From Actinomycetota bacterium (GTDB lineage Bacteria > Actinomycetota > UBA4738 > HRBIN12), in assembly GCA_050692535.1 (NCBI GenBank), contig JBOGVL010000001.1:1-41252 (forward strand): a stretch of 41,252 bases of DNA, in the 5' to 3' direction. The first letter of the stretch is position 1; every line of letters begins with the position of its first letter. Of the stretch, positions 2,984-5,712 are shown in pieces. The notes under the pieces were generated by a model, which worked only from the letters and a program-made list of their open reading frames with translations, had not been told where the DNA came from and searched no databases. The translations under genes were made by a program, and so were the position numbers.

Positions 2984-3156
2984 CTCGCGCAATCGTGGGG
3001 CAGGAAGGCGGAGCGTCGCTTTCTGCTGCATGACGGATGGGCTCGCATGGATGCCCGGCCCCAACAACGCCTGCGATCCGGTAGGCCTGTGGTTCCGGGC
3101 ACGGTTTGCACGATGCAGAACGAGGGAATCTGCATCCCGACCTGGGGAGGTGCTGG

Positions 3157-3348
3157 ATGGCAGGAGCGGCGATGCAAGCCAAGGGGAAGGCGAACAAGGT
3201 CGCGGGATCCGCCAAGAAGGCGGTCGGAAAGGCAACGAAGAATCGGAGTCTTCAGGCGAAAGGATCCGCGCAGAGGGCGAAGGGCACGATTCAAGACGCA
3301 GTCGGCAAGGTTGAGCGGAAGGTTCGTGGCGGGAGCCGTTCGCTGTGA
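3157..3348 (+). CDS. CsbD-family stress protein
   Basis: ATG 3157 lies 6 nt after GGAGG. The Lys/Gly/Ala-rich 63-aa sequence (KANKVAGSAKKAVGKATKN...GTIQDAVGKV) is typical of CsbD. Confidence 0.8.
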   Translation: MAGAAMQAKGKANKVAGSAKKAVGKATKNRSLQAKGSAQRAKGTIQDAVGKVERKVRGGSRSL

Positions 3349-4065
3349 ATGGCTGCTCTTGACGATCCACGAGGCGTTGCCGCATTCTTGCCAACCGTCC
3401 GCACCCCGCCGGCCGAGCCGAGACTTGCGCCTCGGCAACCTGGCGTCGGGCTGGCACTCGTCGGCGTACGCGCCGGTGCGGGCGGAAAGACTCCTGTAAG
3501 AAGCGGTCGGTATGGTGCGCGCATCGCGAAGATTCGACGACTCATTTCGTGCTGGCTCGGAGCAGCGCTCGTGCTCCTCTCCGCCTGCTCGGGCGCCCCA
3601 GACCCGGGCGCGACCGGGTCCACGTCAAGGTCCTCGACCAGGCCGCCGGCGTCCGCGGTCGCCGAGGTCCTGGACTTCTCGTCGCCGAAGCTGGGCGGGG
3701 GAACGGTCCGGGGGGCCGACTACGCCGGGGCCGATCTCGCGATCTGGTTCTGGGCTCCGTGGTGACCGTATTGTCGGGGCGAGGCCCCCGACGTCGCGCG
3801 GGTCGCGCGCGAGTATGGAGATCGGATCGAGTTCCTCGGCATGGCCGCCCTCGACTCCACCGACGCCATGCAGCGGTTCGTCGATGAGTTCTCGCTCAAC
3901 TTCCCGCAAGCGGTCTCCGAGGACGGCTCGCTGTGGGCACGGTTCGGCGTGCCCTATCAGCCGGCTTGGGTGTTCGTGGACGACGACGGCCAGGTGACGG
4001 TGATCCAGGGCGTGCTCCCCGACGACGAGCTTCGGAGGATCCTGGACGAGCTCGCGGCGAGTTAG
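3349..4065 (+). CDS. TlpA/ResA-like thioredoxin-fold lipoprotein with one in-frame TGA (3763-3765) at the first Cys of CxxC: Sec candidate or pseudogene
   Basis: Frame 1 is continuous from 3349 to 4065 except for the TGA. It reads ...LVLLSAC(lipobox)...AIWFWAPW[TGA]PYCRGEAPDVARVAREYGDRIEFLGMAALDS...GVPYQPAWVFVDDDGQV. The start is uncertain: there is no canonical start codon just before the signal peptide, and ATG 3349 abuts the csbD stop. Confidence 0.6.
3773..3792 (+). promoter_or_regulatory. GC hairpin 7 nt downstream of the in-frame TGA (candidate bacterial SECIS-like element)
   Basis: gtcgggg (3773-3779) / loop cgaggc / ccccgac (3786-3792) forms a perfect 7-bp stem. A second small hairpin, cgcgcg-ggt-cgcgcg, lies at 3795-3809. 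Confidence 0.3.
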
Positions 4066-4575: not shown

Positions 4576-5091
4576 TCACCAGCGCTCGCGGTGTACGACG
4601 TCGTCGAACGATCGTCGGTTCGGGTGAAGGATCGGCCTGAGCGGCCGATCGTCGGGATGACCGAGCGCGACGAGGATCGGGCACTCCCGGTCGTCGGGAA
4701 GGCCGAGGATCCGACGGGCGAGTCCCTGATCGCCGACGGAGGCGTGGCCGCTCCCGATGGCGAGGTCCGCGGCGGCGAGCATGATCGACATCGTCACCTG
4801 CCCGAGGTCGTACAGCAGGATGTCGCGCTCCTCTCGGTCCTCGGAGGCCGGCACGACGAGAGCGATCGTGGCTGCCGAGTCCGCGACATGAGCCGCGTAG
4901 CGCCACATGCTCGACAGCTCGCGGAGGCGATCGCGGTCGGTCACCACGACGAAGTCCCACGCCTGCTGGTTCACAGAGGATGGCGTTCGGCGGGCGGCCT
5001 CGAGGATCCGATCGAGCTCCTCGGCAGCGATCTGCCGGGCGGTGTACCTCCGCACGTTCCTGCGAGCTCTGAGGACGTCCCAAGTCTCCAT
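4576..5091 (-). CDS. Nitroreductase family protein
   Basis: 171 aa, METWDVLRARRNVRRYT...RRTPSSVNQQAWDFVVV...LYDLGQ. This is the classic nitroreductase N-terminal signature. Confidence 0.85.
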   Translation of the reverse strand: METWDVLRARRNVRRYTARQIAAEELDRILEAARRTPSSVNQQAWDFVVVTDRDRLRELSSMWRYAAHVADSAATIALVVPASEDREERDILLYDLGQVTMSIMLAAADLAIGSGHASVGDQGLARRILGLPDDRECPILVALGHPDDRPLRPILHPNRRSFDDVVHRERW

Positions 5092-5178
5092 GGGTAGACG
5101 ATAGGTGTTCGGTCCGAGGCATCGCATCGGGGAGGGTGGCGCGACCGGTCCCGAGGATTGCCCACGAGGAGGCCCGCC

Positions 5179-5712
5179 ATGGAACGCGCGACGCCGGTGG
5201 TGATCCGGGGGCCACAGCTCCTGCTTCGGCGGCTGCGACCCGCAGAGATCGACGTGGAGTGGCGGGCCATGGTCGAAGCCGATCCGATGACGATCGCCGC
5301 CCTCCCGGACGAGGCCGACTTCAAGTCCCGACTGCGACGATCGGGTTGGCTGGCGGACGGCTGGCTCGATCTCGCGATCGACCTCGACGGTGAATCGATC
5401 GGGCGTATCCAGACGTTCGTCCCCCCAAGCCGACCACTGCCTCCGGGCGTGTTCGAGGTCGGAATCGGGCTTCGCGCGCACGCGCGCGGCAAGGGCTACG
5501 GTCGCGAGGCCCTCGAACTCCTCACCGACTGGCTGTTCGAACATGCGGCGGCTCAGCGCGTCGAGGCTCCCACCGACCCCGACAACCTGGCGATGCGGAC
5601 GGTCTTTGAGCGGCTCGGCTGGGAGCTCGTGGGAACGCTGGACGACTTCGATCGGACCTGGGTGATGTACGCGATCACCCGGGCGCAGTGGGAGACTCGG
5701 CGCAAGACATGA
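5179..5712 (+). CDS. GNAT family N-acetyltransferase (RimJ/RimL-like)
   Basis: ATG 5179 lies 6 nt after GAGGAGG. It has the acetyl-CoA motif RGKGYGREALELL. The ORF track's TTG 5158 is a less likely start. Confidence 0.85.
   Translation: MERATPVVIRGPQLLLRRLRPAEIDVEWRAMVEADPMTIAALPDEADFKSRLRRSGWLADGWLDLAIDLDGESIGRIQTFVPPSRPLPPGVFEVGIGLRAHARGKGYGREALELLTDWLFEHAAAQRVEAPTDPDNLAMRTVFERLGWELVGTLDDFDRTWVMYAITRAQWETRRKT

Follow-up and report, generated by a model that had tools for sequence, protein, structure and literature searches.

The window analysed here, the whole 41,252-nucleotide (nt) contig JBOGVL010000001.1 of an Actinomycetota bacterium, carries on its plus strand, from about 3512 or 3532 to 4065, a gene for a predicted redoxin lipoprotein whose reading frame is crossed by an in-frame TGA. 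We propose that this UGA at 3763 is a selenocysteine (Sec) codon, served by a Sec insertion sequence (SECIS) of functional type, and that the gene encodes an exported redoxin of the DsbE/DsbF type, a reading to which we assign a probability of roughly 0.87. The product is most likely a membrane-anchored, extracytoplasmic thiol:disulfide oxidoreductase with the motif WFWAPW-U-P-Y-C, in which Sec would be the attacking residue. The gene adds one member to a large, already recognised class of bacterial selenoproteins. What goes beyond a corrected annotation is the size of the family, a GGUC element that is specific to TGA and holds one synonymous codon fixed, the presence of two SECIS classes, and the irregular start of the gene in the window.

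In frame 1 of the plus strand, TGA 3763-3765 is the single interruption between 3349 and the terminal stop TAG at 4063-4065, and open reading frame (ORF) calling splits the gene into 3349-3765 and 3841-4065. The residues around the codon are ...DLAIWFWAPW-[TGA]-PYCRGEAPDVARV..., and the product obtained by reading through it exceeds the Pfam cut-offs for AhpC-TSA, Redoxin and Thioredoxin alike. The original prediction, made from the letters of the window, had placed a lone in-frame TGA at the first Cys of the CxxC motif of a redoxin lipoprotein gene, and frame, Pfam matches and alignment with DsbF all agree with this placement. Apart from its start, the gene is otherwise intact, with all motifs kept and no further stops. 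In the gene frame, the G+C content at third codon positions (GC3) is 0.93 before the TGA (3601-3762) and 0.88 after it (3766-4062), where that at second positions (GC2) is 0.42. Such a coding signature in the same frame on both sides of the TGA supports translation past it.

Among proteins of solved structure, the best matches are Mycobacterium tuberculosis DsbF (Rv1677, 3IOS; E 1.7e-33) and DsbE/MPT53 (Rv2878c, 1LU4; E 7.3e-28), which are exported actinobacterial proteins, DsbF being a lipoprotein. Both align with the window protein over the whole domain and share with it the signature WFWAPW-C-P-x-C, the domain length and the YQPA cis-Pro region, but they have Cys at the first active-site position and no SECIS, and identity over the domain is ~45-50%. 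Typical of DsbE/DsbF (TlpA-like, cd02966), too, are the W-U-x-x-C that opens helix 1 and the cis-Pro loop, both predicted for the window protein. Matches to ResA and the other TlpA-like proteins are far weaker. Of the TlpA/ResA-like label used in the original prediction, the redoxin fold stands, as probably does the lipoprotein nature, while the nearest characterised relatives are the mycobacterial DsbF and DsbE, and not ResA or TlpA proper. Bacillus subtilis ResA, Bradyrhizobium TlpA and CcmG-DsbE resemble the window protein as membrane-tethered, extracytoplasmic CxxC proteins of thioredoxin fold, which match Redoxin and AhpC-TSA as well, but CcdA/ResBC and cytochrome c maturation genes were not found near the window gene. 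The enzyme may act as an oxidase/isomerase, like M. tuberculosis DsbE/DsbF, for which an oxidase role has reportedly been found, or as a reductant, like ResA/TlpA.

No NCBIfam model reached its cut-off for the window protein. ResA (NF002854), with a cut-off of 170 bits, scored 59, and TlpA (NF047696), with one of 230, scored 23, and both were rejected. NF041054, the ResA-like WAxxUGC motif-containing selenoprotein, likewise describes a ResA/TlpA-like protein with Sec in the active-site region, but with 29.3 bits against a cut-off of 300, for a model of 354 positions, it is a different family. Thiol oxidoreductase-like selenoproteins with a UxxC motif are a long-established class (PMC1794560, PMC2398784), and TlpA-like ones have been catalogued (PMC13188914, Table 1; PMC2398784). 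The catalogued proteins agree with the window family in fold class, UxxC motif, Cys/Sec-pair logic and environmental, largely marine distribution, and, judged by their descriptions, the two families are likely identical. The relationship to DsbF, the lipoprotein leader and the two SECIS classes are not described in these two catalogues (PMC13188914, PMC2398784).

A six-frame search of 40 relatives returned one clear ortholog, in a genome of the same family but of a different, sister genus (G022; 47% identity, 150 bits). Its TGA falls on exactly the codon seen in the window (FWFWAPW-U-GRCQETAPGV), and it begins with a clean ATG and the lipoprotein leader MRFRARTAVALAALALVAAAC, which includes a lipobox. 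The remaining matches, at most 37% identical, are Cys-containing paralogs, and none of the 13 same-genus genomes searched yielded the gene. Reference genomes hold many Cys forms with IWFWAPWCxxC, in Mycobacterium, Sporichthyaceae, Jiangellaceae, Nanopelagicaceae, Myceligenerans and other Actinomycetota (WFWAPWCxxC is present in 18 distinct Cys-form loci and in 42 Cys-form rows), and one further Sec form, L050, with TGA at the same codon. When metagenomes were scanned with a DNA pattern for WFWAPW followed by TGA, at least 120 contigs matched. Among the matches listed, about 100 read U-x-x-C and continue for about 100 homologous codons, 3 read U-x-x-U, and about 16 are chance matches in other frames. 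The closest relative recovered among them (L195, ~63% identity) has TGA at the same codon, the same architecture and a normal ATG, and in its annotation the gene caller placed two separate products, of 91 and 98 residues, on the two sides of the TGA.

When 143 distinct domain sequences are arranged in a tree, on which as few as about four changes account for the Sec/Cys label, the window protein falls inside a Sec-only clade whose nearest member is 67% identical, and this placement indicates that its TGA was inherited and not newly made. Compared with six orthologs, the 99 codons downstream of the TGA show a ratio of nonsynonymous to synonymous substitution rates (dN/dS) of 0.2-0.6, and their amino-acid identity equals or exceeds that of the 45 codons before it. 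The ortholog comparison suggested by the original prediction, which was to look for Cys/Sec pairs and a conserved downstream frame, thus gave TGA in the nearest orthologs, Cys forms elsewhere and a conserved frame behind the codon.

The minimum-free-energy (MFE) fold of the window RNA contains two hairpins after the UGA (Table 1). Both had been noticed in the original prediction, the first with its exact bounds, whereas the second, given as 3795-3809, is merely the inner 5-bp register of a longer stem. It had also placed an apical loop within the range of bacterial SECIS models; the fold does fit such a model, but through hairpin 2, the loop of hairpin 1 lying too close to the UGA. In the bacterial SECIS (bSECIS) model, a stem of 4-16 bp is capped by an apical loop of 3-9 nt with G in its first two positions, the distance from the UGA is 16-37 nt, and the MFE is at most -7.5 kcal/mol (PMC13188914). 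Hairpin 2 agrees with it on every count (5-nt loop GGUCG, 7 bp, 35 nt, -12.4 kcal/mol), whereas hairpin 1, with a loop that begins 14 nt after the UGA, falls outside the spacing. Since only hairpin 2 lies within these constraints, we infer that it is probably the stem-loop to which SelB binds.

Comparison across the family ties this RNA structure to the TGA. A gap-free alignment of 96 distinct segments (UGA plus 54 nt) resolves into two structural classes that track habitat and clade, namely an M class (n = 63, mostly marine) and an S class (n = 33, soil and sediment), the latter including the window, G022 and L195. The M class has one hairpin, which bears a virtually invariant GGUC tetraloop at a distance of 27-30 nt from the UGA. 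In its helix 88.9% of cells are paired, against 22-57% in slid-partner controls, and there are 52 double-change cells against 11.5 in shuffles (0/500). The S class has tandem hairpins, with the GGU loop ~8 nt further downstream than in the M class. Hairpin 1 is a conserved accessory stem of the S-class members, in which the stem is kept while its register slides between subgroups, and the window and G022 differ in it by three compensatory pairs. Hairpin 2, with the loop [A/G]GGU[N], is paired in 88.3% of cells and switches from GC to UA pairs in 7 sequences. RNAalifold independently gives it as the S-class consensus, with compensatory changes in four of the six predicted pairs.

The Val codon within the element is GTC in 93 of 95 sequences, whereas the next Val codon, three codons on, is GTC in 22, GTG in 22, GTT in 10 and GTA in 6. 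The Cys forms (n = 18) have GTG, GTT, ATC or CTT at the codon that matches the fixed GTC, and GTC just once. All seven helix pairs can form in none of the 18 Cys forms, as compared with 51 of the 96 Sec forms, and six pairs in 4/18 against 34/96. The lack of the helix and the freedom of the codon in Cys forms, set against the fixed GTC in Sec forms, therefore link the structure to the TGA. A SECIS-compatible fold behind the TGA, which the original prediction had proposed to look for, is thus present and covarying. An Rfam scan of 3600-4000 returned chance-level matches only (E about 1) and is uninformative; to our knowledge, Rfam holds no bacterial SECIS model.

Like the SECIS of the Escherichia coli fdhF type, the element is a stem-loop shortly after the UGA whose small apical loop includes GGU(C). 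Unlike in that type, the loop of the redoxin family lies 27-35 nt and not ~20 nt after the UGA, and the subgroup of the window has an additional conserved hairpin between the UGA and the GGU-loop hairpin. Tentatively, and with the odds against it, the soil-type members, among them the window and G022, may rely on a composite SECIS, made up of hairpin 1 straight after the UGA and the GGU-loop hairpin 35 nt away. Should hairpin 1 be necessary for function, e.g. because it positions SelB by acting as a spacer or a pausing element, the arrangement would represent a bacterial SECIS class of its own.

Apart from these forms, the U-x-x-U members are marine (diselenide) variants (L110, with its TGA at about 2264, L149 and L162) that read WFWAPW-U-PF-U-NAEAP or U-PV-U-RSEA. 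They keep the GGUC hairpin and a full-length downstream frame, and form a single clade with L127 and L165.

The window forms contig C1 in a bin of 2.96 Mb and 467 contigs (87% complete, contamination 2.7%, N50 8.5 kb). As the original prediction had stated for selA, selB, selC and selD, neither sel genes nor tRNA genes were found within the window itself, yet the genome-wide search that it had advised located selA, selB, selD and tRNA-Sec elsewhere in the bin. By profile search, SelA is on C131 (400 bits), with the N-terminal part of SelB directly downstream of it (265 bits) and the C-terminal winged-helix part of SelB on C198; SelD is split across the ends of C40 and C34 (345 bits). The tRNA-Sec, with anticodon UCA, is on C196 (ARAGORN; Rfam 75 bits). 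Moreover, of 41 genomes that were sampled across the genus, family and order of the bin, 37 (G022 included) have SelA above the cut-off, and Sec decoding is thus a trait of the lineage and not a peculiarity of the bin.

A frame-aware scan of the bin gave at least two further UGA genes, each with a GGUC(U)-loop hairpin ~20 nt later. One, for the alpha subunit of formate dehydrogenase (FdhA; C80:4887-4889, minus strand), has its in-frame TGA within ...DSCNRT-U-HAPSVVGLATVFG... (CNRT-U-HAPSVVGL), followed by the hairpin GUGGUC-GGUCU-GGCCAC with a loop from ~21 nt after the UGA, and is predicted as the second selenoprotein gene of the bin. The other is an AhpD/carboxymuconolactone-decarboxylase-like gene, assigned to its family by eye (C389:1900-1902, minus strand), which shows a CxxU motif (...SERNRCEF-U-TGAHGAV...) and, ~20 nt past the UGA, a hairpin with a GGUC loop; it is a candidate for a third selenoprotein.

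The irregular part of the window gene is its 5' end. Hydrophobic core and LSAC lipobox span 3553-3588, and an equivalent leader, M-(R/K-rich)-hydrophobic-[AS][AGS]C, is found in nearly all orthologs, which start 3-12 codons ahead of the hydrophobic core. The initiation codon of the window copy is ambiguous. A canonical start was already noted as missing immediately before the signal peptide in the original prediction, and upstream of the Sec codon, in-frame ATG, GTG or TTG codons are indeed present only at distances of 138, 125 and 64 codons. Most likely, the irregularity is caused by a 1-nt indel between ATG 3512 and 3535, be it an assembly error or a real lesion, or by initiation at ATT 3532. 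ATG 3512 lies 12 codons before Cys 3550, the spacing found for the ATG of L195 (MPWKRKRIRSTAC). A start there, followed by an indel between 3514 and 3535 that would restore MVRASR-x-IRRLISCW..., is the reading we favour, at somewhat less than even odds. Next comes ATT 3532 as a non-canonical or mutated start, which is aligned with the ATG of L190 (MRRLLATALL) and to which we give about one chance in three. ATG 3349, abutting the csbD stop, is an unlikely start because GC3 in the gene frame is only 0.57 over the 163 nt of 3349-3511, against ~0.9 in the gene, and this segment does not look coding; initiation by some means other than these three is just as unlikely.

Irregular 5' ends also occur in other metagenome contigs, namely a 1-nt deletion (frameshift) in a C run ~75 nt upstream of the TGA in L115, relative to L189, and a deletion of most of leader and linker in L098, relative to L142. 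Separately, from ATG 3512 an open frame of 161 codons (3512-3997, plus strand) overlaps the redoxin gene in frame +1. It lacks a coding-type GC3 pattern, and a gene caller could take it for a coding sequence.

Several points weigh against the proposed Sec codon and have to be set beside the evidence above. The assignment, and with it the predicted Se incorporation and expression, rests on sequence comparison. Sec forms were sampled by a pattern that requires TGA and Cys forms by one that requires Cys, and their counts are therefore not unbiased frequencies. The fold of the lone sequence is not significant (z = -1.65), with 13 of 200 shuffles as stable, in line with the caution in the original prediction that GC hairpins are common at such G+C content; because the thermodynamics of the single fold are unremarkable, the relevance of the hairpins rests on comparison across sequences. 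At 35 nt, the GGU loop is close to the upper limit of known distances, while it lies at ~20 nt in the FdhA and AhpD-like genes of the same bin. C1 has 66.6% G+C, uniformly along its length, against 70.9 +/- 1.6% in the bin, and its tie to the contigs with the Sec machinery thus depends on binning and on the lineage-wide presence of this machinery. Lastly, a canonical in-frame start was not found before the signal peptide, and the copy may be poorly expressed or silent.

This last point leads to the alternative that we take most seriously, although we consider it improbable, at about one chance in four. The gene would be a genuine selenoprotein gene with an ancestral Sec codon, but the copy in the window would be decaying, a real indel after ATG 3512 or an ATG>ATT change at 3532 having removed efficient initiation. 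Such decay is compatible with the Sec reading of the TGA and differs from it only on the state of this copy. It would agree with the lack of a canonical in-frame start in the 58 codons that precede the signal peptide, with an ATG 3512 that stands at the homologous position yet one base out of frame, with the 5' lesions of L115 and L098, and with the search of 13 same-genus genomes in which the gene was not found, so that it is dispensable in the genus. However, the rest of the gene is flawless, with intact motifs, no extra stops, GC3 of 0.88-0.93 and dN/dS below 1. In a fragmented metagenome bin such as this one, single-base indels are, moreover, a typical error of assembly or consensus, and AUU initiation is known in bacteria, e.g. 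in E. coli infC.

Two other explanations deny that the UGA is decoded as Sec in this gene, and both are highly improbable. One substitution would suffice to turn TGC into TGA, for which reason the original prediction had considered a recent pseudogene of an ordinary Cys-type redoxin equally simple, and an irregular start codon would suit such a gene as well. Yet all nearest relatives (47-67% identity) carry TGA, while the nearest Cys forms are at most ~54% identical to the window protein; the covarying RNA structure and the fixed synonymous codon are specific to TGA, and the codons downstream of it are under purifying selection. We thus reject a recent nonsense mutation, the least probable of the alternatives. 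Scarcely more probable is that C1 was mis-binned and that its true host lacks Sec decoding, so that the UGA terminates translation or is read by another tRNA. The deviating G+C content, the length of C1, by far the longest contig of the bin at five times its N50, and the estimated contamination of 2.7% could be taken in this sense. But the best DNA matches of C1 (up to 86-91%) are in the same genus and family, in a lineage with SelA in 37/41 genomes, and a TGA-linked SECIS itself implies a host that decodes Sec. The genes of C1 match those of relatives singly and at scattered loci, with 70-91% identity. C1 is possibly flexible or accessory DNA of the lineage (an accessory island, or plasmid-like) or DNA of a close relative or population in the same sample; under either origin, given the SelA count, its host lineage decodes Sec.

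With the UGA read as Sec, the following course of events can be envisaged. When the ribosome reaches UGA 3763, SelB-GTP-Sec-tRNA(Sec) would bind the GGU loop of hairpin 2, and Sec would be inserted; hairpin 1 would be at least partly unwound by the ribosome while the UGA is in the A site. The precursor would then be exported, lipidated at the Cys of the lipobox and cleaved. The mature enzyme would alternate between selenol/thiol and selenenylsulfide, and would exchange disulfides with exported proteins, presumably faster than its Cys relatives.

Table 1. Features of the redoxin gene and its neighbours in the window.
Feature	Position	Strand	Remarks
CsbD-like gene	3106-3348		upstream neighbour
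Ambiguous translation start region	3512-3534	+	ATG 3512 (then GTG 3515) one base out of frame; in-frame ATC 3523, ATT 3532
Predicted lipoprotein signal peptide, (I)RRLISCWLGAALVLLSAC	3532-3588	+	lipobox L-S-A-C 3577-3588; lipidated Cys = TGC 3586-3588
Low-complexity linker and N-terminal part of thioredoxin-fold domain	3589-3762	+	ends in signature WFWAPW; alignment with DsbF (3IOS) from residue 16
UGA, predicted Sec codon	3763-3765	+	nucleophilic first position of U-P-Y-C motif; aligned with first Cys of WFWAPWCPTC in DsbF
C-terminal two thirds of redoxin domain	3766-4065	+	cis-Pro region YQPAW; DsbF alignment to residue 145 of 150
Resolving Cys (TGT) of UxxC motif	3772-3774	+	direct reading and DsbF alignment
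Hairpin 1, GUCGGGG/CCCCGAC	3773-3792	+	7 bp, loop CGAGGC; begins 7 nt after TGA; -12.2 kcal/mol
Hairpin 2, UCGCGCG-GGUCG-CGCGCGA	3794-3812	+	7 bp, loop 3801-3805; 35 nt after UGA; -12.4 kcal/mol
Nitroreductase gene	4576-5544	-	neighbour
GNAT gene	5158-5712		neighbour

A CcdA/DsbD gene was not found near the window gene, nor was one for cytochrome c maturation, and over 109 loci of the family no conserved neighbour was found, save a divergent dihydrolipoamide dehydrogenase in 15 marine loci. In this marine subgroup (L093, L081 and 13 others), the dehydrogenase gene adjoins the selenoprotein gene, together with that of an E2 acyltransferase in 5 loci, which likely reflects lineage synteny and not a functional link. 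In the 13 same-genus genomes, the only genes matched, at other loci, were those of the nitroreductase (77-82% identity) and of the upstream lipoprotein. At 2516-2980 on the plus strand, the window has a lipoprotein-like ORF of 155 residues (...LAALAACSGDGGG...) that has no Pfam match and whose C-terminal half resembles, by eye, a small cupredoxin-like beta domain; its homologs in same-genus genomes lie at other loci, with 75-78% nucleotide identity.

In summary, for the window gene itself, our analysis chiefly provides a corrected annotation. Standard gene callers split or shorten Sec redoxin genes, as they did with the window gene and with L195, and an abundant extracytoplasmic selenoenzyme of environmental Actinomycetota is thereby systematically absent from annotations. 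The alignment, with its ~100 natural variants of the SECIS in two structural classes, is useful for refining bacterial SECIS models. Furthermore, the family constitutes a natural series of Sec, Cys and UxxU forms on the well-studied DsbF scaffold, with which one may probe what selenium buys an extracellular catalyst of disulfide exchange.

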